NCBI GenBank assembly: GCA_023150835.1
Contig: JAKLKB010000092.1
Span: forward strand, 1 to 36,160
Length of the DNA stretch: 36,160 nt
Origin: Myxococcota bacterium
GTDB lineage: Bacteria; Myxococcota_C; UBA6777
Direction of reading: 5' to 3'
The notes beneath the pieces were generated by a model. That model was not told where the DNA came from, searched no databases, and was given only the letters and a program-made list of their open reading frames with translations. The position numbers and the translations under genes are program-made. Positions within the stretch are counted from its first letter, which is position 1; every line of letters begins with the position of its first letter. Shown piece by piece: positions 1,679-29,068 of this stretch.

Positions 1679-2713
1679 ATGCCAGAATCGTACGCAGCGA
1701 TGACGTTGGTGGCTCCGAGAACCTTCGAGCAACAGCAGCGCCTGTTGACACCACTTGCGCCGCACGAGGTGTGGTTGCGAGTGCGCACAACAGGCGTGTG
1801 TGGAACGGACATCGCGATCTACAAGGGGCAATACAAAGTGCCGCTTCCTCGGGTGCTTGGGCATGAGTTCTGCGCAGAAGTCGCACGGATCGGAGATCAA
1901 GTGCCACCAAGCTGGCTGGATCGTCGCGTCGTCGCGGAGATTAACAACGCCTGCCCAGAGATTAAGGCCAACGCCAACTGCCCGACTTGTGGCCGTTTGC
2001 ATCCCAATCACTGCGCCAAGCGCACCGTCACAGGGATCATCCGAGCGGACGGTGCTTTTGCAGAATACGTCCGTGTACCTTTCGCAGCGCTGCACGCACT
2101 ACCCGACGAGATCAGCGACGAGATCGCGATCTTTGTGGAGCCGATGGCTGCGGCGCTTCAGACCTTTGTGATGCGGCCTCTCGCGAACGGAGAGCGCGTT
2201 GCGGTGCTTGGGGCGGGGCGGCTGGGTTTGTTGATCATCGCCGCAGCACGAGCCTCTGGAGCCCAAGTGATCGCGATCACACGCTCTGAAATCCGCAAAC
2301 AATGGGCTTTGCACTTTGGGGCCGAAGCCGTTTTTTCTCCCCACGAAGAAAGCGAACAGGATCTGCGCTCCGTCTTTCACGGCCATCTCGCTGATGTTGT
2401 GGTCGAGGCCACAGGAACCCCCGAAGGGATGGCAGAAGCAACGCGCCTCGTCCGCCCACGCGGAACGATCTGTCTCAAGACCACTTTGGGCATCCCCTCA
2501 GAGATCGATCTCACCAAGATCGTCGTCGATGAAATACAGCTCTCTGGATCGCGTTGTGGCCCTTTTGCCTCCGCCATCCATTTCCTTGAACAAACGCGCA
2601 TCCCTCTCCAACGCTTCCTCCTCGAACGCTTTCCTTTGGCCCAGTTGGCCTCTGCCATGAAAGCCGCCAGACAACCGGGAAAAGTTCTTGTTTATCCAAC
2701 ACTTGAAAAATAG
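1679..2713 (+). CDS. Zn-dependent alcohol dehydrogenase (MDR family)
   Basis: GVCGTD, VLGHE, a 4-Cys structural Zn cluster (C..CPTC..NHC) and a GAGRLG Rossmann motif. Start placed at MPESY (1679); the upstream extension in the ORF track does not look like part of the enzyme. Confidence 0.9.
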   Translation: MPESYAAMTLVAPRTFEQQQRLLTPLAPHEVWLRVRTTGVCGTDIAIYKGQYKVPLPRVLGHEFCAEVARIGDQVPPSWLDRRVVAEINNACPEIKANANCPTCGRLHPNHCAKRTVTGIIRADGAFAEYVRVPFAALHALPDEISDEIAIFVEPMAAALQTFVMRPLANGERVAVLGAGRLGLLIIAAARASGAQVIAITRSEIRKQWALHFGAEAVFSPHEESEQDLRSVFHGHLADVVVEATGTPEGMAEATRLVRPRGTICLKTTLGIPSEIDLTKIVVDEIQLSGSRCGPFASAIHFLEQTRIPLQRFLLERFPLAQLASAMKAARQPGKVLVYPTLEK

Positions 2714-2870
2714 AACACGTTTCAAAAAAAATTTTTTCTCCCGCAAGCAACCTTCCCAAGCATACTTCGATAATCTTCTATGAAAGCGGTCAAACAAATC
2801 GCGAACAAAACCTGCCCATACATCGGGCAGTTTGCGCAACATAAACCCCAATCCTTTTCGGGAGGCTCCT

Positions 2871-3968
2871 ATGTCCGTCAATCAAATCCAAGGTGGTGCA
2901 GCGTTTTTTGGTGCAGCAGTTCAAATGGCGACCCAAAGTGTCCAAGTCGCCCAACCCAACACCCTCCAACAAATCGGTGGCTTGCTCAAGAGCATCGGAA
3001 ACTTCTTCCAAGCCGCTGGCGATCTCGCCGGTAAAGTGGGCGGATTCGCACAACAAGCTGGCTTTGGCGCTGGCTTTGTTCCCCGCCCCGGTGCCGAAAC
3101 CATGCAACCCTCCATGCCCGTTGGCTTTGGCGGTGGTTTCTTCGGTGCTGGCGCAGGTATCGGCGCTGCCGGTGGTGCCGCAGGCGGCTTCTTCTTTGGT
3201 GGTGTTGTCGGTGCCGGTGGCGTCCAACAACCCTCCGTCCCCGAAACCAAAGGTGGTATCGAGCAAATCGGCCCCAACAAGTTCAAAACCCCCGGTGGTT
3301 TCACCGTCGAAGCCGAAGGCAAAGACGCTGCTTGGAAGATCACCACACCCGAAGGCAAAACCACCCGTATCTGGGGTGACCCGCACGTCAACGTCAACGG
3401 CAAACAAGCCTTCGACTTCAAAGATCAAAGCAGCTTCGTCCTTCCCGACGGAACCAAGATCACCTGCCACACCAAACCCGTTGGCAACGGCCCCGATGCA
3501 CCGACCCTCAGCACCAAGATCGATATCATGAACGGCGATCAACGCGCAAGCATCGACGGCATCCACACCGGAAAACCCGAATCCACTGGCGTCAAAAATG
3601 ACCGCTGGGAAGTCGATGCAGCCACCAAAGACGGCAGCTACTTCGCGATGGGCAACAACGGCGACAAGTGGTTCCTCAACGGCAAAAACGAGATCACCGG
3701 TGGAAACGCCCGTACCGGCGAGATCTACACCAAAGGCACTACCGAAGCTGGCGCTGGCGGCGGCGTCTCCGACATGGCACAAAACGCAATGCAAGAAGCC
3801 CCCAAGTTCGGCAACCAAGAGTTCTTCCAAAACATCATGATGAACCTCATGAACATGATGATGCAACAAATGATGCAGCAAATGTTCTCTGGCTTCACCA
3901 ACCGCTTGTTCGGTGGCGATCAAGATCAACAAAACCAAGAACCCAAAGGCCTCGGCGCTTTCATCTGA
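2871..3968 (+). CDS. Gly-rich DUF1521/MIIA (GDPH autocleavage) domain protein
   Basis: GGAGG RBS at 2861-2865 and ATG at 2871. Contains TTRIWGDPHV (GDPH at 3375-3386) followed by FDFK..SSFVLPDGTKIT. The N-terminus is Gly/Phe/Ala-rich and the C-terminus is a Met/Gln-rich helix. No Sec signal. Confidence 0.8.
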   Translation: MSVNQIQGGAAFFGAAVQMATQSVQVAQPNTLQQIGGLLKSIGNFFQAAGDLAGKVGGFAQQAGFGAGFVPRPGAETMQPSMPVGFGGGFFGAGAGIGAAGGAAGGFFFGGVVGAGGVQQPSVPETKGGIEQIGPNKFKTPGGFTVEAEGKDAAWKITTPEGKTTRIWGDPHVNVNGKQAFDFKDQSSFVLPDGTKITCHTKPVGNGPDAPTLSTKIDIMNGDQRASIDGIHTGKPESTGVKNDRWEVDAATKDGSYFAMGNNGDKWFLNGKNEITGGNARTGEIYTKGTTEAGAGGGVSDMAQNAMQEAPKFGNQEFFQNIMMNLMNMMMQQMMQQMFSGFTNRLFGGDQDQQNQEPKGLGAFI

Positions 3969-3974
3969 GCCCAG

Positions 3975-4078
3975 CTTCTCTCCCCCCTTCTCTCTTTTTC
4001 TCCCCCCCTTCCTCTTTCTCCCCCCCTTCCTCTTTCTCCCCCCTTCCTCTTTCTCTCCCCCCTTCTCTCTTCTTCTCC
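3975..4078. repeat. Polypyrimidine tract with imperfect ~18-bp tandem units
   Basis: About 100 nt of C/T only on the + strand directly after the stop codon, with units like CCCCCCTTCCTCTTTCTC. Confidence 0.9.
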
Positions 4079-4328
4079 GCTCATTCTTTTCCCATATCTC
4101 TTTCGTATTTTGTAGTTGAACCGCAATCAACCAACCCTGCATTTTTTTCTTTGATCACGAAAAGGGCTTGGCGCAAAACACACCTTGTGGTAGGTTGCAA
4201 GCGCGATCCCGTTTGTATTCTCGATCACCGCACCATCGCGCTTTATTACGCCCAAATCGTGCGGTCATAGGCTGAGACGTTGCCTTGCAAAGCGAGCAAG
4301 GAAAATACACTGCACAAGGAGATAATGG

Positions 4329-5549
4329 ATGACAGAGCAAACACCCAAATCAATTCGGGCGTCTTTTGCGGAGATGTTGGGACCCGATTCCGCTGTTCGC
4401 GTGGGCCTTGGAGGATGGGGGATCCCCGGCCTCGAGACAGGCGAATCTCCAAAGCCTAACCTCGGCTTGATCCTTGGCTACTGTATGGAAAAAATCGCCA
4501 TCCAATTCCGCCTGCTTCGCGGCCTCAGCCTCGAAAGCTCGACTCTCCAACAAAGCCTGTCCTCGATGGTCGGCGGAACGATGGGTGGACGCATCGGAAA
4601 AGGCGGAACATCGGCTTTTAGCAGAAAACAAAAAGAGGCGATGGATACCGCAAAGATGGCCGTTGATCAGTACAAAACGGACAAAGAGCAAGGACTCAAA
4701 ACAGTACGTGGCTTGGCGGGATTGAGCGAACCGATGCGAGAACTCGGAGCAACCGAAAAGATCCCGATGATCGAGATCTTGGTGCAAAACCTCCCTGCGA
4801 CGCGGCACAGCGAGCTGCATCGCGCCGTCCTGAACGTTCTCCGCAGTGCTCGCAACGAAGAAGAGTTCCGCCAAATCGTCGATGCAGCGGGGGGAACCAA
4901 AGCGCTGAAAGACAAACTCAACGATGCAGATCTCGGTGCGTTGCACGCCCTTTTGGAAGAATTCGGCATGGAGCCTTGGAATGTTCCCCTCAAACATTCG
5001 CTGTTCCAACACCCCGATACCACAGACAATCAGCACAGTTCATTTGATGGATTGAAAGAACAATTTACCAACCAAAACGCTGTCCAACTTCTCAATGACG
5101 ATGGGATGGAGCGTTTTCTGTTGGGCGATATCAACGCTGCCGAGCTGATGGGGCTTTCCCGCGAAGAACTCTACATGATCGCCAACCGTGGCTACGAGCT
5201 GATCGAACAAGGCAAGCTGCCGCAAGCCTTGCGGATCTTTGATGGCCTTGCTTATCTCGATCCAATTGATGCTTATTTTTACACGGTGCTTGGTTCGATC
5301 CGCCAAAAGATGAACCAGTTGGAAAGCGCGCTGGCTTGCTACAACCAAAGCCTCTCCCTCCAAGGCTGGAACTTGACCGCGTACGCCAATCGCGGCGAGA
5401 TCTTCTTTAACCAAGGCAAACTCACCGAGGCATTGATCGACTTTCAGCGTGTGATCGCCCTCGATCCTGACGCCAAAAATCCTTCCACCATGCGCGTTCG
5501 CACCTTGATCGCCGCGATCCAAGAAGCCGTCAACCAAAAAACAGCCTAA
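4329..5549 (+). CDS. TPR protein: unknown N-terminal domain plus C-terminal SycD/LcrH-like (class II T3SS chaperone-like) TPR domain
   Basis: AAGGAG RBS. The C-terminal segment AAELMGLSREELYMIANRGYELIEQGKLPQALRIFDGLAYLDPIDAYFYTVLGSIRQ..ALACY..YANRGEIF forms three TPRs with the SycD-like N-terminal cap. Confidence 0.75.
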   Translation: MTEQTPKSIRASFAEMLGPDSAVRVGLGGWGIPGLETGESPKPNLGLILGYCMEKIAIQFRLLRGLSLESSTLQQSLSSMVGGTMGGRIGKGGTSAFSRKQKEAMDTAKMAVDQYKTDKEQGLKTVRGLAGLSEPMRELGATEKIPMIEILVQNLPATRHSELHRAVLNVLRSARNEEEFRQIVDAAGGTKALKDKLNDADLGALHALLEEFGMEPWNVPLKHSLFQHPDTTDNQHSSFDGLKEQFTNQNAVQLLNDDGMERFLLGDINAAELMGLSREELYMIANRGYELIEQGKLPQALRIFDGLAYLDPIDAYFYTVLGSIRQKMNQLESALACYNQSLSLQGWNLTAYANRGEIFFNQGKLTEALIDFQRVIALDPDAKNPSTMRVRTLIAAIQEAVNQKTA

Positions 5550-5551
5550 CC

Positions 5552-5605
5552 CCCACTTCGCCCTTCCCACTTCGCCCTTCCCACTTCGCCCTTCCCACTT
5601 CGCCC
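5552..5605. repeat. 14-bp tandem repeat x4
   Basis: CCCACTTCGCCCTT is repeated immediately after the stop codon at 5549. Confidence 0.9.
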
Positions 5606-5657
5606 GCCCTCGTTTCGATCCGCGCCGTCGTTTGGACCGAAACGCATCCGTATGCGC

Positions 5658-7718
5658 TCAATGCGGTTTGAGCGGGTAGATGTCTTCGATCTCGGTATTG
5701 GACTCGAAATCTTTGGTCGCGTAGGCATGGTGTTCTCGGAACTTGCTTTCATCGACCCCAAGGGACGGAGGATACAGCGATTCAAGAAGAGCCAAAACAA
5801 AGCGATCGCGAAAGTTGAGAGTACACTGCGAACGGGCCGCTGTTTCGCCGATATCGGGAGTGGTGCGCACCAAGATCAAGTTCTCTTCGCGCATCAGATC
5901 GATCCAACCTTGGCGTTCTTCTTCGGTCTCTCCAAAAAAATCATCGTGGCGTAATTTTCCCTCGATCTCCGAAAGATCGGCAACACCGCTGCGATCTTGC
6001 ATTTGTTGAATCATCTCCAAGATCCGCAAGACGCGTGCGCGTGCTTCTTCGGCGACGGGGTGTTTCAGATCGAGGTGCGCACCGCGTGCAGGATGTTGGC
6101 CCGGGCGCGGATCATGGGTCCGTATCTCGATAATGCCCTTCTCTCGGGCAGAACGCACGACGGCGTTGCAAAACGCCCGATCCAAACTGCGACCCATCAC
6201 ATGAAACAGCGTCGACATCGGCATCCACCCCGCCACCACCGCATCATTGTTCGAGATATGCAAGTAATGTTCGACCACGACCGTCAATCGGAAGAAATCC
6301 AACGGTCGTAGCGTTAACGTGCGGCTCAACGCATCGGTTTCTGCATCCAACGCCGTTTCGTCATCGATCTCTTCGGGTTTTCGAGAAAGATGTTGCACCC
6401 ACGCATGATCCGGAACCAAGCGCAGCAACGTGGGTGGATCGCGCATCTCTCCTTCGATCGCACGCGGGCGCCCCCGAAAAGCATGCAAAAATCCGATGGC
6501 AACGAGGAAATTACACCACTCCTTCAAACGCAGTCGATCCAACCAATCCTGCATGGCTTGAAGCGCCGGCTCCGCCACCAACTCGTCTAACAGCTTGCTA
6601 AACGACACCCCGTGCCAATGGGGGTTTTGCTCCAACAAACGCTGCATCGTCGCCAAGACCAACGCGGGGACCTCACGACAACGCCGATACAGATCTTCTG
6701 CTGCACCAAGTGTATACTTGTACTTTTTGCGAAACAGCGGCGCGCCACCCTCTTCGACTTCTAACGCATAAATGCCCTTCTCTACGGCCTGTTCGACGAT
6801 TTGTTGCAGTTCATCCGCGCTGCTCATCAAAGACCACTTCTCCAACTCCTCCCGCAACCGACTAAATGTCACATACTCCCACCACGGGTTGCGCGACAAG
6901 ATGATCTCCAACGCCCACACCAACTGCACCCAACGAAACTCTTCATCAAACGACCACACGGGCTCCGAAGCGCGTTCAACCACTGTCGGCTTCAACAATA
7001 CCCGCCGTCCTGTGGGAAGTTCTGTCTCCGAACGCTCCAAAAAGCCCTCACGTACAGCTTGGTTGATATAAAACTGCGCTTCGACGTCCTCTTCGCACAT
7101 CCCCCGCTCGACCATCAATCGCGCAAGCATATGAAACGACATCCCATTCCAAGTGCGGCGCTTGAGTTCTTCTTGCAGCACACGCTGCATCCAAATATAA
7201 AACGCCGCAGGCTCCATATTTTGCGGCGTTTGTAGCGGTATCAGCGCACCTTCTTGTTCGACGACCTCCAAAAACGACAACACTTTGACCCCTTCGGGAA
7301 CAGATATCTGTTCGGGATCTGCGACGATCAACGTCACCCGAGAGTGCTGTTTCGCCAAGATGCGCGGAAACACGTAGTCTCCGCTCACAAGGATGATCCG
7401 ATCCACATCCTCGCTTGAAAGTGTTTCTAATTTCTTTTCGATGGCTTGTTCTGTGTAACTGCGATCCGCTGGACGCAGCAGGTACAAACAGTCAAAACCT
7501 TGGGCCGTCAAGATCGCTTGGGCGCTTTGATCTTGCCGCTTGTGCGGTAAAAATCGATCCCACTCCGCCCACATCATCGCCCAGCGAACAGGCTCAAAAC
7601 GTTGCGCAAACCGCAACAGATCTTCCCCGATCTGCTTGTGGTTCAGACGACAATACTCTTTGCGCTGTAGCACAAATGACAAGTTCTCATAATCCACAAA
7701 TATCGCCACGCCCGACAT
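5658..7718 (-). CDS. NYN (LabA/DUF88, PIN-like) domain protein with multiple C-terminal winged-helix-like repeats
   Basis: N-terminal VAIFVDYENL and IILVSGDYVF motifs, AAGGAG RBS, and about five repeats of the pattern W.gvsFs.L...(helix)...AV..G. Confidence 0.8.
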   Translation of the reverse strand: MSGVAIFVDYENLSFVLQRKEYCRLNHKQIGEDLLRFAQRFEPVRWAMMWAEWDRFLPHKRQDQSAQAILTAQGFDCLYLLRPADRSYTEQAIEKKLETLSSEDVDRIILVSGDYVFPRILAKQHSRVTLIVADPEQISVPEGVKVLSFLEVVEQEGALIPLQTPQNMEPAAFYIWMQRVLQEELKRRTWNGMSFHMLARLMVERGMCEEDVEAQFYINQAVREGFLERSETELPTGRRVLLKPTVVERASEPVWSFDEEFRWVQLVWALEIILSRNPWWEYVTFSRLREELEKWSLMSSADELQQIVEQAVEKGIYALEVEEGGAPLFRKKYKYTLGAAEDLYRRCREVPALVLATMQRLLEQNPHWHGVSFSKLLDELVAEPALQAMQDWLDRLRLKEWCNFLVAIGFLHAFRGRPRAIEGEMRDPPTLLRLVPDHAWVQHLSRKPEEIDDETALDAETDALSRTLTLRPLDFFRLTVVVEHYLHISNNDAVVAGWMPMSTLFHVMGRSLDRAFCNAVVRSAREKGIIEIRTHDPRPGQHPARGAHLDLKHPVAEEARARVLRILEMIQQMQDRSGVADLSEIEGKLRHDDFFGETEEERQGWIDLMREENLILVRTTPDIGETAARSQCTLNFRDRFVLALLESLYPPSLGVDESKFREHHAYATKDFESNTEIEDIYPLKPH

Positions 7719-8657: not shown

Positions 8658-9950
8658 TCACAAGCAGATCCCAAATCCCCCGAAGACTCGGCACGTTTTG
8701 CGCCCTTGGCATTGAGAACATTCTGCATCCGTCATGCAAGAGTTCGGACACTGCGAAGGACTCCCGCCTTGTTTGCACTGAAAAGTATCGCAAGTGTACC
8801 CTTGGCCGCAGGGACCGCAGTCTGCGTTGCTCATGCAAAATCCCGGACACGTCGTCGTTCCCCCTTGTTTGCAAGTGTTCTGTTGGCAGCGAAAACCCTG
8901 CCCACAAGGATTGCACTGAAAGTCGACAAAGCATTGTGCCGGACATTGCGTCGTTGCGCCTTGCTTGCATTGGAAGTTGTCGCAAACAAAGCCTTGACCG
9001 CAGGGACCGCACTCTGTGTTGTTTGTGCAAAAAGACGGACAGGCGGGAGGTTGCGTCGATGGCTTACAGGCTCCGCTTTGGCAGGTGTAGTTTTGGCCAC
9101 ATCCGCTGCACTGGATATCCACGAAACATTGCGTTGGACATTGCGGCGCGGTGCCTTGTTTGCATTGGAACTGTTGGCAAGTGTAGCCTTGGCCGCAAGG
9201 CTGGCATTGGGTGTCCGAAGCACAAAAGTTCGGACAAGTCGGGCCGGATTGTTGTGCGCATGTTCCATTTTGGCAGGTGTAGTTTTGCCCGCAGCCGTTG
9301 CACTGCACGTCCACCACACACCCACCCGGGCAGTTCGCAGGACTCGCGACTTTGCACGAACCTGTTTGGCAGGTGTAGTTTTTCCCGCAGGGAAGGCATT
9401 GATCATTTGCAAAACAAAATCCGGGACATTGGTTTCCTTGTTTGGCGCACTGGCCGCCTTGGCACTGATACCCGACGCCACACACAAAACACTCCGCATC
9501 GGTTTGACAGCTTGCCCGACAGGTCGGAACATCGGGAGCCGTCTCCGTCGATGGGGATTCGGTCGGGACTTCGGGCCTTTGTGACTCGGCCACCGCCTCC
9601 GCACCGCTCTCCGCACCGCCATCAGCAACGGCTTCAAGACTGGCCTCTGCGCTCACTTCTGCCGAAGGTTCCGCAACTTCCGCGACCGCTTCTGCGCCCA
9701 CTTCCGAGCCGCTCTGTTCTTGTGCTGCTTCTTGTCCGACTTCTTGCGCGATCCCCTCGCTGTTGCTGCCTCCCTCCACACTGCGCGCCACACAAACCCC
9801 CCCTTCACACCGCGCTTGATCGACACATTGCGCATCTGTCTGACATTGCGCCCCGACCGGCGCACGCCCACCATCACAACGCAACATCACCAAACCCACA
9901 CACATCAAACCAAACCATATATCCCATCGCACTCGACCCAAACGCTGCAT
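8658..9950 (-). CDS. Exported Cys-rich repeat protein (probable lipoprotein)
   Basis: GGAGAGG RBS before MQRLGR, a hydrophobic signal ending MLRC, a 4-Cys module, a Glu/Ala/Ser-rich linker and nine 6-Cys repeats (CP..C.....C..C.....C....C). Confidence 0.85.
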   Translation of the reverse strand: MQRLGRVRWDIWFGLMCVGLVMLRCDGGRAPVGAQCQTDAQCVDQARCEGGVCVARSVEGGSNSEGIAQEVGQEAAQEQSGSEVGAEAVAEVAEPSAEVSAEASLEAVADGGAESGAEAVAESQRPEVPTESPSTETAPDVPTCRASCQTDAECFVCGVGYQCQGGQCAKQGNQCPGFCFANDQCLPCGKNYTCQTGSCKVASPANCPGGCVVDVQCNGCGQNYTCQNGTCAQQSGPTCPNFCASDTQCQPCGQGYTCQQFQCKQGTAPQCPTQCFVDIQCSGCGQNYTCQSGACKPSTQPPACPSFCTNNTECGPCGQGFVCDNFQCKQGATTQCPAQCFVDFQCNPCGQGFRCQQNTCKQGGTTTCPGFCMSNADCGPCGQGYTCDTFQCKQGGSPSQCPNSCMTDAECSQCQGRKTCRVFGGFGICL

Positions 9951-10245
9951 CTGTTTTTCCTCTCCACTCAAATTGTCCGATTCTTCGGACTTTTCGCAAA
10001 ACCTTCACCCAAGACCTCGATCGCAAGCAACCCACAACCTCGTCCACAAGAAACCACAGATTCTTTGCGCGAGGGCTTGCGCCCCATCAGCCACCTACAC
10101 ACTATCCATGCCTTGGCCCTTGATATCCCATCGCGAGTATCTATACAACAGAGAACACAAAAGACCAAGCCCACACGCGCTTTCGGTCGTCCTGCGTATC
10201 CACAGGCTTTCTCGAATACAAGAGGCCCCTTCGCAAGAGGTTGTC

Positions 10246-24406: not shown

Positions 24407-25450
24407 TTAGGACCGGGGGGAAGAGGAAGAGAGGCGCTTGGCGAGGGGGATCAGTAGAAGGGCAAGCAAGAGCAGCAAGACGGAGATCAGTTGGCCCCAT
24501 GTGAAGATATCGGGGCCTTCGGCAGATCGGACGAAGTCGACTTCAAAGAGGAAGCCGCGCACGATATCGCCGCGAAAGATCTCGATAAAAAACCGCACAA
24601 AGGCATAAAGGATCAGATAAGCGATCACGACTTGGCCGTGAAAGCGTTTGTTGTGGCGAATCCACAGCAAGACGAAAAAGATGGCGAGTGTTGCGAGCGC
24701 TTCGTAAAGCTGCGTGGGGTGGATGTGTCCCTTGAGTCCGACACTTGCGGGAAACGACACAGCCCACGGAAGATCCGTCGCTTTGCCATAACAGCACCCC
24801 GCCGAAAAACAGCCGATTCGCCCGAAGAATTGGCCCAAAGCCACCACAGGAACGACCGTATCCGCAAGCAAAAAGAAGCCGAGCTTTTGACTGCGAACAA
24901 ACAGAGCCGTTGCGATCAAACCGCCGATCAATCCGCCATGAAAGACCAAGCCACCTTCCCAGATACGAAACAGCTTGGCGTTGTAAAAGGGCGTGGTGGC
25001 CTTGAGGTTCGGCCAATACGTCGTATTCCACTCGGTGATGATAAACAGAACACGCGAACCCACCATCGAAGCGATCAACACCCAAAAAGCAAGGTCAAGG
25101 ACTTGATCGGGCGCAACGCCCACACGACGGCCCTCTCGGATCGTCAGCGCGATGCCAAAGATAAACCCCAGCGAGATCATCACACCATACGTATGCAGCT
25201 TGATCTCGCCCAGATACACGAGGCCCACAAGCGCCAACCCCGCCCCAAAGATCAAACTCGTGGTGGTGGTGATCCAGCCCGCTGTTCGGCGCTCTGTCGC
25301 ACGCTCAGGATCCGTGGCCCACAGATAGGCCACAAACGAGATCCCAAACAACACCGCCATCAGCTTCCATTGGGCAAACAGCCACGAACCCGGGCCAGCA
25401 AATCCCGACCAAGACGACGGCACTTTCCACTCAATTAAGATCTGGTACAT
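24407..25450 (-). CDS. lgt: Prolipoprotein diacylglyceryl transferase (canonical copy)
   Basis: LHTYG, WEGGLVFHGG, FGRIGCF.AGCCYG, HPTQLYE and RFFIEIFRGD are all intact. Start at MYQIL. Confidence 0.93.
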   Translation of the reverse strand: MYQILIEWKVPSSWSGFAGPGSWLFAQWKLMAVLFGISFVAYLWATDPERATERRTAGWITTTTSLIFGAGLALVGLVYLGEIKLHTYGVMISLGFIFGIALTIREGRRVGVAPDQVLDLAFWVLIASMVGSRVLFIITEWNTTYWPNLKATTPFYNAKLFRIWEGGLVFHGGLIGGLIATALFVRSQKLGFFLLADTVVPVVALGQFFGRIGCFSAGCCYGKATDLPWAVSFPASVGLKGHIHPTQLYEALATLAIFFVLLWIRHNKRFHGQVVIAYLILYAFVRFFIEIFRGDIVRGFLFEVDFVRSAEGPDIFTWGQLISVLLLLLALLLIPLAKRLSSSSPRS

Positions 25451-25503
25451 CGAAGCTCTTTCTTTTGGACCGATACGAAATCCGCCCCTTGTGTAAACGG
25501 AAG

Positions 25504-25548
25504 ATGTAGGGGCAGCCACAGGGGGCTGCCCAACAACAGGGCGTCTAC
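25504..25548. repeat. GTAG-type REP-like palindrome (family A)
   Basis: ATGTAGGGGCAGCCACAGGGGGCTGCCCAACAACAGGGCGTCTAC, lying between the two lgt genes. Confidence 0.65.
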
Positions 25549-25646
25549 AGCGGATCGCACCGACCCTTCAAGCACACTTTTCTCGGAGATCGTATGACAC
25601 CGTAAAAACAAAGGCGCAAAAGGCGCGGAGATTCGGGATGGAGGGC

Positions 25647-26702
25647 TTATTTCGCGCCTTCTTGGTTTTGGCGGGTGACAAACACCGCCAAGGCCAACAC
25701 AAAGAACACAGCCGCAGCAAGCTGGCTCCATGACAACAGATCCGCTCCTTGGGCAAGGGGCGTGATATCGCGCTGGAACGAAGCGATCAGACCGCGCCGT
25801 TCGTCGCCACGGAACATATCAAGGAAGAACGAAACCACGGGATAGATCAACAGATACCACACGAAGACTTGGCCGTGATAGCGCTTGGCACTGCGCACCC
25901 ACAGCAACACAAAGAACAAGGCCAAGACAGCGAGCGACTCGTACAGTTGCGTGGGATGCAAGCCAACCCCCGCAGGAAGCTCAGCAGGCAACAGCGGATG
26001 CCCGGGAAAAGAGACCTTCCATGCGGCGTTTGTGACTTTTCCAAAACCAAACCCCGCTGCAAAAGAACCCAACAGACCGAAGAATTGGCCAAGCGCCACC
26101 GAAGGGATGATGATATCCGCCATCTTCCAAAAGTCCACTTTGGAAAGTTTTGCAAAGGCAAGGCTAACCAAAAGAGCCGCCAGAAGGCCACCATAGAACA
26201 ACAAACCACCTTCCCACAGACGAAAGATCTTCCACTGATACCACACGGTTTGCGTACGGAAGTCCGAAGCAAATTCAGGCCAATGGATCGCAACAAAGAA
26301 CAGACGCGCCCCAATCATCGCCGCAAGCAACAACCAAAACGCTAGATCGAGGATACGTTCGGGATCTTCGCCGACACGACGGGCCTCACGCACCGCCAAG
26401 ATGATCCCCAACAAAAAGCCGATCGCCACCAACACCCCATAAGTATGCAGCTTAATGAAGTTGAGCCGCCCTGTCCCGATACCGCCCAAGATCGCCGCAA
26501 ATACCAACGCTGCAACGGTTCCCATCCATCCCAACGCACGACGGCCTCCCTTGGCCTCAGGAGCCAAGCCCCACCACGCCACGATGCCGCTCACCACAAG
26601 ACCCACAATCCACAACGAAAGCTTTTGGGCCATCCACTTGTCTGGCCCCCAGATCTTGAAAAAACTTGCGGGTAGTCGGTAATCCAACAAGATCGGATGC
26701 AT
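25647..26702 (-). CDS. lgt: Lgt paralogue with substituted catalytic residues
   Basis: MHPILL, LHTYG, WEGGLLFYGG, FGLLGSFAAGFGFG, HPTQLYE and SFFLDMFRGD. AGGAG RBS. Confidence 0.9.
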   Translation of the reverse strand: MHPILLDYRLPASFFKIWGPDKWMAQKLSLWIVGLVVSGIVAWWGLAPEAKGGRRALGWMGTVAALVFAAILGGIGTGRLNFIKLHTYGVLVAIGFLLGIILAVREARRVGEDPERILDLAFWLLLAAMIGARLFFVAIHWPEFASDFRTQTVWYQWKIFRLWEGGLLFYGGLLAALLVSLAFAKLSKVDFWKMADIIIPSVALGQFFGLLGSFAAGFGFGKVTNAAWKVSFPGHPLLPAELPAGVGLHPTQLYESLAVLALFFVLLWVRSAKRYHGQVFVWYLLIYPVVSFFLDMFRGDERRGLIASFQRDITPLAQGADLLSWSQLAAAVFFVLALAVFVTRQNQEGAK

Positions 26703-26815
26703 CTACACTCTCCTGTTCTGTTCTTGCTTCTACGTTCCTATCTATCCGTGTCCAAACAAAAGGACAAAACACACAAACCATCTTTTCATCTTGCCGGCTC
26801 GTCGGGTTGGTTTTT

Positions 26816-26864
26816 GCGGGGCGCTGCCCCACTCCCCGCAAGGGAACTTCGTCCCCTTGACCCC
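26816..26864 (+). repeat. Double-hairpin REP-like element (family B)
   Basis: GCGGGGCGCTGCCCCACTCCCCGCAAGGGAACTTCGTCCCCTTGACCCC. Confidence 0.8.
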
Positions 26865-27013
26865 GTGTCGGCGGGGTGATCAAGGGTGCTTCAAACCAAC
26901 CACTCTGCCGCTTGATCAGGCACCAACTCGGGGTTTTTCAACGAACCGCTGCTGTTTGCACACCAGCCAACCACAAAGAGAATCCTGATCAGGGATGTTT
27001 CTTCGAGGCCGTC

Positions 27014-27745
27014 TCAAGGGCCTTTTGGAGGTTCTTGTGCGGGCTGGGATGATCCACCCCACAACGTATGCAGCGCGAAAAAAAACACACCAAAGGAGAT
27101 CGCGATATCCGCGATGTTGAAAGTCGGCCAATGCGAAGTCCCTTGCGCGGTGGTCCAGTAGATGTCGATAAAATCGATCACATGGTTCACACGCAAACGA
27201 TCTGTAAAATTGCCCACCGCACCGCTCGCGATCCCCGCGATGCCCAAGATCAACAAGGTCTCTTCGTCGCGTGCGCGGCGCAACATCGTGGTCAAAAACA
27301 CAAACGCCAACAACGTGATCAGCACAAACAATCCACGCCGCACCAACACAGGCAAGCCGCCAAACACACCCCACGCCGAACCCGGATTGAGTGCATAGCG
27401 AAAGTTCAACAAGCCCGGGAGCACCACACACGCAGGCGAGGCGATATCCGCCACGATCAACACATCGCGACACCACGAAGACTTTTTTAACGCCTCGACC
27501 TGTTTCTTCCACACATCAAGGCTCAGGCGCGCTCGATCAAAACACTTGTCACCTGCTTCGACACAAGAACGCTCACAAGCGCTTTTCTGTTCCTTTTGCT
27601 GACAAAGCCCCCAACACACCTGCCGCTCCATCAAACACGCCGCTTGCGGAGAATGAAGGTGCGTGGTCGCCCAGTGCTTGCTGCCCTGATCCAACCCCAC
27701 CACCACCAAAACCACCCACAACACAACCCAGTAGCGACGCGGCAT
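27014..27745 (-). CDS. lspA: Signal peptidase II with 8-Cys insertion
   Basis: LDQGSK, NPGSAWG, GAVGNFTDR, VIDFI and WPTFNIAD motifs. Confidence 0.92.
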   Translation of the reverse strand: MPRRYWVVLWVVLVVVGLDQGSKHWATTHLHSPQAACLMERQVCWGLCQQKEQKSACERSCVEAGDKCFDRARLSLDVWKKQVEALKKSSWCRDVLIVADIASPACVVLPGLLNFRYALNPGSAWGVFGGLPVLVRRGLFVLITLLAFVFLTTMLRRARDEETLLILGIAGIASGAVGNFTDRLRVNHVIDFIDIYWTTAQGTSHWPTFNIADIAISFGVFFFALHTLWGGSSQPAQEPPKGP

Positions 27746-27757
27746 ATCGTTCTCGCC

Positions 27758-28885
27758 TTATTTCAAAATGTCCGAATCACCCGCTTTTTCCACACGTTCC
27801 GATAATGACGGAGCTTCGATCATCTCACTTTGTTCGGTGATGGTCGATGCTTCGGGCGGATCTGTTGTGGCCGATGCTTCAGACAAGCTCGTTGTGGCCG
27901 ATGCTTCGGGCGGATTTGTTGTGGCCGATGCTTCAGACAAGCTCGTTGTGGCCGATGCTTCGGTCGTTGTGGCCGATGCTTCGGTCGTTATCGCGGATGT
28001 TTCGGTCGTTATCGCGGATGCTTCGGTCGTTGTGGCCGATGCTTCGGTCGTTGTGGCCGATGCTTCGGTCGTTGTGGCCGATACTTTGGGTGTTGGGATG
28101 TGCTGATGGCGAAGGGGAGAGGCGGATGGAGGTTGTTCGATGTAATCGTCTCGATCGGCGTATTCTTCATCAAAAGAAGAGCGAAGGACTTCGATGGCGA
28201 TCAGGACGACACCGACAGAGATGGCGACGTCAGCGACGTTAAAGGTCGGCCAAGAGTGAGAACGCCCTCCGATGTGGACAAACCAGTAGATAAAGTCCAC
28301 AACGTAATCCATCCGCAAGCGATCCAAGAAGTTGCCCAGAGCGCCGCCCAAGATCAACGAAAGCGCCCAAACCATCTGCCGATGCTCCGTTTCGACTCGA
28401 AAAGAGAACAAGTAGACGATAAACAAGATCGCAAGGATGGTGATCGTGATAAAGAAAGGACGGCGAAACTCAGGCGGGTAATCGGAAAACAAGCCCCATG
28501 CAGCGCCGCTGTTGGTTTGGTAACGGAAGTGAAAAAAGCCCGGGACGACGATACACTCGGCGTTGCTGCCGCTCCAAGGCTGGGATACGCTGCGGCAGAT
28601 CCCCGATTGCTTCATTGAATCAAGGTCATAATTCCATCGGCTTATCAAGCGATTCTGCTCTTTTTGGCAATCTTGTTCCAAAAGATTGCAGCGCTTCATG
28701 CAAGAGACCAAACTGCCTTGGTTCCGGGCTAATCCCTCACGACAGCGATCTTCACAAGTGCGGCGCTTGTCATAACAATGGTTTCCGGGGTGGCGGAGAT
28801 ACTGCACCGCCATCAACTTGCTCCACTGATCCAACCCGATCACAGACAAACCAATCGCCAAAAGGATGATGTATTTCTTGCTCAT
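27758..28885 (-). CDS. lspA: Signal peptidase II with 8-Cys insertion and Thr/Ser/Ala/Glu repeat tail
   Basis: LDQWSK, NSGAAWG, GALGNFLDR, VVDFI and WPTFNVAD motifs, with 21-bp SATTTEA repeats at about 27843-28083. Start at MSKKY. Confidence 0.92.
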   Translation of the reverse strand: MSKKYIILLAIGLSVIGLDQWSKLMAVQYLRHPGNHCYDKRRTCEDRCREGLARNQGSLVSCMKRCNLLEQDCQKEQNRLISRWNYDLDSMKQSGICRSVSQPWSGSNAECIVVPGFFHFRYQTNSGAAWGLFSDYPPEFRRPFFITITILAILFIVYLFSFRVETEHRQMVWALSLILGGALGNFLDRLRMDYVVDFIYWFVHIGGRSHSWPTFNVADVAISVGVVLIAIEVLRSSFDEEYADRDDYIEQPPSASPLRHQHIPTPKVSATTTEASATTTEASATTTEASAITTETSAITTEASATTTEASATTSLSEASATTNPPEASATTSLSEASATTDPPEASTITEQSEMIEAPSLSERVEKAGDSDILK

Positions 28886-29068
28886 GCTTTGCTCAAATGT
28901 TCCGTCAGACGGGGGATTTCCAAGGGTAGCCCCCCCCGACGACGCCAACGCTTCCTCAAAAGAACGGTCAACATATACCTGTCGCCCCTTGCTTGTCAAC
29001 CACAACACCGAAGTTCCCGCATGCTCAAGCAAGCCAACAACGCTCACTCCACAGCCCCGAGGCCACCG

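Follow-up and report, generated by a model that had tools for sequence, protein, structure and literature searches.

Two adjacent genes, the first encoding a DUF1521/MIIA protein and the second a protein which ends in a SycD/LcrH-like tetratricopeptide repeat (TPR) domain, lie near the beginning of contig JAKLKB010000092.1 of a Myxococcota bacterium, and are probably the substrate and the dedicated chaperone of a system for type III secretion (T3SS) encoded elsewhere in the genome. The window analysed is the entire contig (C26; 36,160 bp) of a 7.56-Mb genome distributed over 239 contigs, with 55% G+C and an estimated completeness of 93%; as window and contig coincide, the known sequence 5' of the pair is limited to 2.8 kb. 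Gene 1 (P0001, positions 2871-3968, 365 residues) and gene 2 (P0002, positions 4329-5549, 406 residues) are co-oriented on the plus strand. Gene 1 starts with the ATG at 2871, preceded 8 nt upstream by the Shine-Dalgarno sequence GGGAGG, and AAGGAG is found upstream of gene 2. Both genes are under purifying selection, dN/dS relative to the orthologues of one close relative (L012) being 0.14 for gene 1 and 0.09 for gene 2.

An original prediction, made from the letters of the window, had read the pair as a module detached from any secretion apparatus. Pfam scans of the 27 further open reading frames (ORFs) found no sct genes in the window, and whole-genome searches with PF00771, PF01312, PF01514, PF00813, TIGR02516 and PF09392 returned no match on contig C26, in line with the predicted lack of sct/hrc genes. 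The order ADH gene, DUF1521 gene, X-TPR gene, 686-residue gene is retained in three close relatives (L011, L012 and L013), and a fourth (L016) retains the ADH gene and the pair, the 686-residue gene not being found there. The detached position is therefore old and stable.

The two proteins and their predicted complex

The product of gene 1 matches only DUF1521 (PF07481) in Pfam, with an E value of 5e-21 and 75.9 bits against a gathering cut-off of 23.6, as had been expected from its GDPH motif; residues 143-268 (positions 3297-3674) align with profile positions 17-146 of 169. No NCBIfam model matches the protein, which a genome search returned as the sole DUF1521 copy (78 bits). Its 22 homologues retrieved by a word-indexed search all carry PF07481. 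Conservation was read from an alignment of 21 relatives (A1) and from a wider one of 75 sequences. The N-terminal region (residues 1-64, positions 2871-3062) is Gln-rich, helical and conserved in the 21 relatives, the helices predicted at residues 11-24 and 29-55 having a low pLDDT of ~50 in AlphaFold2. The first charged residue is K40, and the 39 uncharged residues before it may hold a candidate type III secretion signal plus helices; by inspection, no signal peptide is apparent. A Pro-rich peptide follows (residues 65-83, positions 3063-3119), the predicted chaperone-binding segment, where P73 is invariant in A1, and G68, P80 and P83 occur in at least 90% of the sequences. The next stretch is a hydrophobic low-complexity linker (residues 84-129, positions 3120-3257; 19 Gly among 46 residues), modelled with pLDDT below 50, variable, and missing from about one third of the relatives. 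The all-beta MIIA/DUF1521 domain (residues 130-290, positions 3258-3740) is modelled by AlphaFold2 on the 75 sequences with pLDDT above 90 over most of its length. It includes the WGDPHV motif (residues 168-173, positions 3372-3389), or IWGDPHV from residue 167; the codons of Asp170 and Pro171, the predicted scissile bond, occupy positions 3378-3383. The protein ends with a predicted Met/Gln-rich helix (residues 313-346, positions 3807-3908), in which the Met/Gln-rich stretch 321-339 lies within the modelled helix 316-346 (pLDDT ~88).

G169, D170, P171, H172 and V173 are invariant both in A1 and across the 75 aligned relatives; in A1 the LPDGT motif is also invariant, W168 nearly so, and conservation extends to the Gln-rich segment at the N-terminus, to the G-F-V-P-x-P...M-x-P-x-N-P peptide and to the FGGQxF...QMMQQ C-terminal helix. 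The single cysteine, C199, is not conserved among relatives. The original description of a Gly-rich protein lacking a signal, with IWGDPHV, one Cys, a C-terminal helix and Asp-Pro codons at 3378-3383, thus proved accurate in each point, the missing signal by inspection only. No harpin family is among the Pfam matches of gene 1, no harpin model having been searched by name, and harpin-type composition is confined to the Gly-rich linker and the one non-conserved Cys.

NopE1 and NopE2 of Bradyrhizobium japonicum, which carry two MIIA domains and act in plant symbiosis, share the DUF1521 family and the GDPH motif with gene 1; we know of no class II chaperone adjacent to them. Their secretion is described as T3SS-dependent, and their autocleavage as Ca2+-dependent, in work cited in PMC6506597 and PMC10574481. 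VIC_001052 of Vibrio coralliilyticus is like gene 1 in having one DUF1521/MIIA domain with a GDPH site, a similar length (370 versus 365 residues) and a T3SS-linked gene, which is located in a T3SS cluster (PMC6506597). According to the account of its cleavage given there, the chain is cut C-terminal of the Asp in GDPH, an Asp-to-Ala change blocks the reaction, Ca2+ and Mn2+ activate it and Mg2+ does not; the domain has two Ca2+ sites with Kd <1.6 uM, and is disordered without Ca2+ (PMC6506597). Gene 1 differs from VIC_001052 in several respects. It lies away from sct genes and directly adjoins a chaperone gene fused to a domain called here X; its flanks are different (Gln-rich N-terminus, Gly-rich linker, Met/Gln helix); and its MIIA domain is near-neutral, with 21 acidic and 20 basic among 161 residues, versus 42 acidic and 21 basic among 171 in VIC_001052 (PMC6506597).

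GDPH autocleavage sites are also found in VWD domains. The motif of gene 1 lies in DUF1521 as predicted, and no VWD model of Pfam matches the protein at E<=1. Family profiles match the mouse FCGBP chain 8rde_A (E 1.2e-8 with A1, 2e-5 with A2), the match spanning only four copies of the motif W/S-G-D-P-H-x4-D-G-x3-D-F, a likeness at the motif level. Foldseek returned nothing at E<=0.001 for the gene 1 model in the Protein Data Bank; in a structure search independent of Foldseek, VWD-containing chains, among which MUC5AC, vitellogenin and FCGBP, recur among the best, weak matches to the beta domain. Gene 1 thus resembles VWD domains with GDPH autocleavage (FCGBP, MUC2, MUC5AC/B, VWF) in motif and may do so, weakly, in fold, and an evolutionary link between the bacterial MIIA domains and the eukaryotic site is possible. 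In mucin VWD domains, GDPH cleavage has been proposed to leave a reactive C-terminal Asp.

Gene 2, which has 19 full-length homologues, encodes two distinct parts. Its C-terminal 150 residues are canonical TPRs in Pfam, and the SycD/LcrH-like TPR domain covers residues 255-406 (positions 5091-5546). The NCBIfam model LcrH_SycD (TIGR02552) aligns residues 267-391 (positions 5127-5501) with profile positions 4-128 of 136 (E 1.9e-19). The genome's top LcrH_SycD matches score 83.8 bits (a 243-residue TPR gene that adjoins sctV) and 72.6 bits (gene 2), the third 48.9. The family profile of gene 2 matches residues 8-141 of the 148 of SycD (E 9.7e-11), as well as PcrH and AcrH, and the AlphaFold2 model (pLDDT 80.6, pTM 0.80) superposes on SycD (TM 0.84, rmsd 2.3 A) and AcrH, and displays the class II chaperone fold of three TPRs plus a capping helix. 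The SycD-like end foreseen for this gene was thus recovered in both sequence and model. Stand-alone class II chaperones such as SycD, LcrH, PcrH, IpgC and AcrH have ~150-170 residues, whereas gene 2 has 406, ~250 of them in the N-terminal domain X; stand-alone TPR forms of ~160-200 residues adjoin DUF1521 genes in most other lineages. SycD/LcrH-fold chaperones classically serve translocators. The presumed substrate of gene 2, in contrast, is an MIIA protein matching only DUF1521, and not a hydrophobic translocator of the SctE/SctB type.

Domain X (residues 1-254, positions 4329-5090) is a rare helical domain which belongs to no Pfam or NCBIfam family. An exhaustive HMMER search of 1.84 billion proteins found 14 representatives at E<=1e-3, among them a form of 165 residues that stands alone and two large proteins (1,630-1,653 residues) that have four X-like stretches. 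The ESM Atlas gave no usable match for X, and a structure search with the whole gene 2 model was filled by TPR matches. A 1,643-residue HEAT protein encoded near sctV (contig C131) was considered as a carrier of X-like repeats, such as P0072 and P0074 have, and rejected (BLASTP E 0.031). Four long DUF1521 proteins (P0018, P0019, P0020 and P0022; 518-551 residues) have, behind the Met/Gln helix, a C-terminal extension homologous to residues ~16-220 of gene 2 (BLASTP E 2e-14 for P0018, 1e-12 for P0019), and at one locus (L015) the long DUF1521-X form is followed by a stand-alone TPR gene. Three layouts can be distinguished: DUF1521 / TPR, the commonest; DUF1521-X / TPR, seen in L015; and DUF1521 / X-TPR, seen in this window and in L011, L012, L013 and L016. 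That a domain is joined now to one, now to the other of two neighbouring gene products is a classic sign of their working together. Judging from the layouts, the chaperone has captured in this lineage a domain which elsewhere sits on the substrate, an arrangement that is new as far as we searched. The movement of X between substrate and chaperone would be a natural pointer to their interaction surface.

The predicted complex of the two full-length proteins reaches an ipSAE of 0.68 (0.69, 0.68 and 0.67 in separate runs), the best of three controls scoring 0.00. Of 157 solved complexes, 116 attain the mark used, as do 2 of 215 mismatched pairs; these counts hold only roughly here, as our own alignments were used. 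The runs share at least 48% of contacts, and the pLDDT of the partners is at least 66. In the model, residues 65-83 of the substrate lie in the concave face of the TPR, where they meet residues 285-289, 320-323 and 350-354 (expected errors 1.2-1.4 A). Residues 9-46 pack against two helices, the last of the TPR (393-404) and the first long one of X (41-61), and residues 313-334 against X and the X-TPR linker. None of the confident contacts involves substrate residues 84-312. The model supports the binding of the substrate by gene 2. By analogy only, the arrangement recalls PscE-PscG and YscE-YscG, in which a T3SS substrate that polymerises has its C-terminal helix buried jointly by a TPR-like protein and a small helical partner; in the present model the TPR and X surround both substrate termini. 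Unlike in those pairs, both parts belong to one polypeptide, and the groove is predicted to bind an N-proximal peptide.

The pair and type III secretion genes in this and other genomes

Scanning one genome per GTDB species revealed 243 DUF1521 relatives, and the best 80 loci, from other species, were analysed. HMMs of X and the TPR, built from 20 family members, were run on all ORFs of the 80 loci; a TPR gene was taken as adjacent when it matched at E<1e-10, shared the strand of the DUF1521 match and lay no more than 2.5 kb downstream of it, and sct core genes were found with the Sct proteins of this genome. At least 1.5 kb of downstream sequence is present in 70 of the 80 loci. The GDPH motif occurs in 79 of the 80 ORFs extracted, the single exception being an ORF-calling artefact. 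A TPR gene is adjacent in 46 of the 80 loci, at least one sct core gene is present in 27, and both are found in 20; the two genes adjoin each other also in all four close relatives with the fusion, and the adjacency in relatives anticipated by the original prediction is therefore real. The Myxococcus qinghaiensis locus reads sctU, TPR, unassigned ORFs, TPR, sctV, DUF1521 (379 residues), TPR, and then sctD on the opposite strand; sctJ and sctU flank the pair in Pyrinomonadaceae. By gene order and family matches, the MIIA gene and an LcrH-type chaperone gene are a conserved pair in T3SS clusters of Myxococcota and Acidobacteriota, and the pair also occurs detached from such clusters; both statements are new as far as we searched. 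The finding of the pair inside sct clusters in other lineages makes a detached substrate/chaperone module the natural reading of the window, and the complex model lends it support. In a FastTree phylogeny of 60 TPR domains, the chaperones adjacent to DUF1521 and the TPR of gene 2 fall into one clade (46 tips, support 0.77), while the chaperones upstream of sctV, together with the C131 copy of this genome, form a separate one (8 tips, support 0.92).

The host belongs to a separate, small GTDB phylum of 5 genomes, 4 of which carry DUF1521. With so few genomes a phylum-wide profile is uninformative, and a Myxococcota sample centred on the genome of locus L055 was used. DUF1521 occurs in 90 of the 301 genomes sampled, and all 90 are among those with a SctV-family match; in the 31 genomes lacking SctV, DUF1521 was found in none (lists compared by eye). 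Among the 150 sctV matches listed, at least 41 genomes have both genes on one contig. The distance between them is within 10 kb (from a sctV over the cut-off) in at least 37 genomes, within 5 kb in at least 33 and within 1 kb in at least 10, and exceeds 170 kb in at least 4, reaching 1.55 Mb on a complete Corallococcus chromosome.

Other contigs of this genome carry sctRSTUV, N, L, Q and J, hence both an export apparatus and a sorting platform, as the prediction of a T3SS elsewhere in the genome had implied. Contig C131 carries SctV (803 bits with the hrcV model, cut-off 692), preceded by the SycD-like TPR gene. At the start of contig C113 are sctQ, a FliO-like gene, sctR, sctS, sctT and sctU, and at the start of C132 a FliA-like sigma factor gene, a SctI-like gene, SctJ, a FliG-like gene, SctL, SctN and a FliK/SctP-like gene; having sct genes at contig ends, C113 and C132 may abut. 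SctV, SctU, SctL and SctQ exceed the NCBIfam cut-offs, SctR, S and T were found by Pfam, and SctN (602.1 versus 604.75) and SctJ (155.2 versus 161.95) fall just under. By model preference, the system is non-flagellar.

Type III secretion in myxobacteria is known from the needle-less T3SS* of Myxococcus xanthus (mxan_2434-2464). Reviews and a 2025 study on predation by Myxococcus describe it as required for prey lysis, and as having several LcrH homologues and no known effectors or substrates (PMC10433427, PMC12428579, PMC12075869). The prey of T3SS* deletion strains is reportedly killed without being lysed. Points of likeness are the DUF1521 and LcrH-like genes between sctV and sctD in Myxococcus loci, and the fact that this 93% complete genome, as expected of a needle-less system, also has no secretin SctC over the cut-off. 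It differs in that its sct genes are spread over at least three contigs, and in belonging to a separate small GTDB phylum; the FliK/SctP-like gene and weak needle-like paralogues described below imply that its T3SS may not be needle-less.

Proposed role of the pair and alternative explanations

We consider it likely that gene 1 is a substrate of the non-flagellar T3SS of this genome, and gene 2 its dedicated chaperone. The proposed scheme starts from what was computed directly, namely the family and the motif, the chaperone fold, the pairing, the linkage to T3SS elsewhere, the T3SS genes of this genome and a passing complex model; export, Ca2+ dependence, cleavage, action of the fragments and a role in predation are suggested by characterised MIIA proteins and by the chaperone class. 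In the cytoplasm the class-II-type TPR of gene 2 would clamp the Pro-rich peptide in its concave groove, while the last TPR helix and X would cover the N-terminal helices and the C-terminal Met/Gln helix of the substrate, leaving the MIIA domain free. The complex would be delivered to the export gate encoded elsewhere (sctV on C131, sctQRSTU on C113, sctJ-L-N on C132), and the substrate exported unfolded. Once the protein has left the cytoplasm and meets Ca2+ at micromolar or higher concentrations, its MIIA domain would fold and cut itself at Asp170|Pro171, yielding two fragments (170 and 195 residues). A role at the surface, like that of a translocator or tip protein, is favoured over that of a classical enzyme effector, because the chaperone is of the class II (translocator) type, and terminal helices surround an inserted domain.

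Several points weigh against this assignment. Export, binding and cleavage are all computational predictions. The 360-bp spacer with an array of repeats separates the two genes, and their co-transcription is only putative; in a scan of positions 2600-5800 for sigma-70 promoters and terminators, promoters were at chance level (1 found, 1.1 expected). The anticipated SycD/LcrH identity of gene 2 stands as to the near-full profile match, but not as to the score, since its 69.8 bits are below the curated equivalog cut-off of 104.8; the protein is for this reason called SycD/LcrH-like, and not a member of the equivalog. Moreover, 11 of 14 control genomes have generic TPR proteins that LcrH_SycD matches at E<=1e-5. 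The complex model may owe its pass, at least in part, to its likeness to solved structures in which a class II chaperone holds a translocator peptide. Pfam found no homology of gene 1 to known translocators, tip or needle proteins. As its MIIA domain is near-neutral and predicted to be well folded, and that of VIC_001052 acidic and disordered without Ca2+, metal control may differ. No SctC over the cut-off was found in the genome (three secretin-family matches, 112-116 bits versus 238), although at 93% completeness its absence is not proven. An adjacent TPR gene is missing from 34 of the 80 DUF1521 loci, including all those of Bdellovibrionota and Gammaproteobacteria, and such a chaperone is therefore not a constant partner of MIIA proteins; at Vibrio and Photobacterium loci (L039, L081) a weaker TPR match lies ~1 kb further on, with sctN, sctJ or sctV nearby. 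Finally, SctV-family matches (E<=1e-80) are found in 270 of the 301 Myxococcota genomes, 179 of them over the hrcV cut-off (both counts include the unpublished genome G169), and co-occurrence of DUF1521 and SctV is weakly informative. SctV being so common, and related genomes not being independent, adjacency is the stronger evidence.

Gene 1 could instead be a late, soluble translocated effector similar to NopE1 and NopE2, in which cleavage frees two fragments acting inside the target cell. We regard this alternative as doubtful. The lack of homology to translocators, tip or needle proteins in Pfam is in its favour, some relatives have extra C-terminal domains with weak metallopeptidase matches (L078), as effectors often have, and the Gly-rich stretch, being variable and often absent, argues against a conserved membrane segment. 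Against it stand the classical service of SycD/LcrH-fold chaperones to translocators rather than effectors, the location of the gene among core apparatus genes (sctV/sctD in Myxococcus, sctJ/sctU in Pyrinomonadaceae) and the usually single copy of DUF1521 per genome. The last two features fit an apparatus-associated substrate better than an effector. The only characterised DUF1521 proteins are, in the descriptions available, T3SS-secreted proteins or effectors (PMC6506597, PMC10574481), which again speaks for an effector.

It is distinctly unlikely that gene 2 serves chiefly in regulation or as a sorting adaptor, the chaperone, once freed, reporting secretion activity to transcription or docking on a gatekeeper, and X being an output or docking domain and not a cap for the C-terminal helix of the substrate. 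In other lineages the substrate itself carries X, immediately after that helix, and the complex model sets X and the linker against the same helix; both observations agree with capping. Pfam and NCBIfam revealed neither a DNA-binding nor a known regulator domain in gene 2. Regulation would in any case be compatible with a chaperone role. Least probable among the alternatives is that the pair is here unrelated to type III secretion, gene 2 being a general TPR scaffold or regulator, and the DUF1521 protein staying inside the cell or leaving it otherwise, so that detachment marks a changed function. The absence of sct genes from contig C26, the stable arrangement among housekeeping genes, the LcrH_SycD score below the cut-off, the loci lacking an adjacent chaperone and the presence of a lineage-specific X domain speak for this reading. 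Yet the TPR of gene 2 clusters with chaperones adjoining DUF1521 genes inside sct clusters, every one of the 90 DUF1521-positive Myxococcota genomes sampled has a SctV-family gene, this genome retains a full export apparatus, and the N-terminus of gene 1 has, by inspection only, no Sec-type features. A detached pair is found also in Corallococcus, its T3SS residing 1.55 Mb away on the same chromosome.

Starting from the proposed substrate and its chaperone, a broader scenario can be drawn, which we consider unlikely as a whole. According to it, the MIIA protein, accompanied by its chaperone, is the conserved exported component, as yet unnamed in the literature consulted, of needle-less T3SS* machines in Myxococcota and of comparable systems in Acidobacteriota, pushed out at prey contact and armed outside the cell by Ca2+-triggered GD/PH cleavage in a bacterial cousin of VWD, and X is a movable cap for the C-terminal helix. 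Were this true, the C-terminal Asp exposed by cleavage could be reactive and form a covalent bond with a target, and the helix capped by X would be prone to polymerisation or membrane insertion. That MIIA proteins are encoded in T3SS clusters is already known, as are class II chaperones and the myxobacterial T3SS*. We found no literature joining DUF1521, MIIA or NopE1 with the Myxococcus T3SS, though the 2022 Cell Reports paper on T3SS*, the 2011 J Bacteriol paper on NopE1 or their supplements may list the gene. The same pair, embedded or detached, occurs across Myxococcota and Acidobacteriota, and is a concrete candidate substrate of the needle-less T3SS* of predatory bacteria, which can be tested in a laboratory strain.

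Other features of the family, the genome and the contig

Variants of the DUF1521 proteins were noticed at several loci. Gammaproteobacterial and some other members (L053, L059, L083 and L087; also L039, L076, L081 and L090) have helical ends, and their C-termini read like those of needle or rod subunits (...KEIIRNI), which suggests a helix-MIIA-helix layout across the family. A Pfam scan of 13 distant DUF1521 proteins for needle, tip or translocator termini gave only a faint PF09392 match (E 0.057), in the Photobacterium protein of L081. In Acidobacteriota, two 504-residue proteins (L078:4301-5812 and L080:7911-9422) have an N-terminal DUF1521 and weak C-terminal zinc-metallopeptidase matches (E ~1e-3), and the MIIA domain may there be fused to an enzyme. 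The metagenome-assembled genome of locus L013 has a second, shorter DUF1521 gene (L014:7800-8708, 303 residues), which lacks the Gly-rich linker, and has no chaperone gene within 8 kb downstream.

In the genome under study, three tandem paralogous ORFs on contig C76 (151-333, ~1348-1887 and 2341-2859; L102:1147-1686 and 2140-2658) have a Gly-rich N-terminal half and, in their C-terminal ~58 residues, a weak match to PF09392, the needle family (21-23.5 bits versus a cut-off of 29.4). These ORFs are possible needle-like subunits in a genome where no SctC exceeds the cut-off. The sctJ-L-N cluster of contig C132 (131-7533; L008) opens with the sigma factor gene, of the FliA/WhiG type, and includes the FliG-like gene at 2788-3849 and, at 6610-7533, the gene with the FliK/SctP hook-length-control domain; by their family matches, these three are flagellum-like features in a non-flagellar T3SS. 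A 788-residue frame on contig C25 (1157-3523; L010) joins a match to NadC (quinolinate phosphoribosyltransferase) with one to the cytoplasmic C-terminal domain of FlhA/SctV (profile positions ~350-677).

Perfect or near-perfect tandem repeats recur in the window just beyond coding ends. A pyrimidine-rich array (3976-4078; five units of 18-20 bp, identified by Tandem Repeats Finder and by the sequence itself) lies between the two genes, directly after the gene 1 stop; another (5552-5605; 14 bp x 3.9) directly follows the stop of gene 2, and a third is at 1555-1652 (33 bp x 3). Convergent with gene 2 is the 686-residue gene (5658-7718, minus strand), which has no Pfam family and occupies the same place in L011, L012 and L013 with 67-98% identity, and is thus a conserved neighbour of the pair. 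Further on, also on the minus strand, a Cys-rich protein of 437 residues (8658-9971) consists of many copies of a ~36-residue unit, C-P-x-x-C-x5-C-x2-C-G-Q-x-Y-x-C-Q, with no Pfam match at E<=1e-5, and at 24407-29047 two genes for prolipoprotein diacylglyceryl transferase (Lgt) and two for signal peptidase II (LspA) follow each other in a row.

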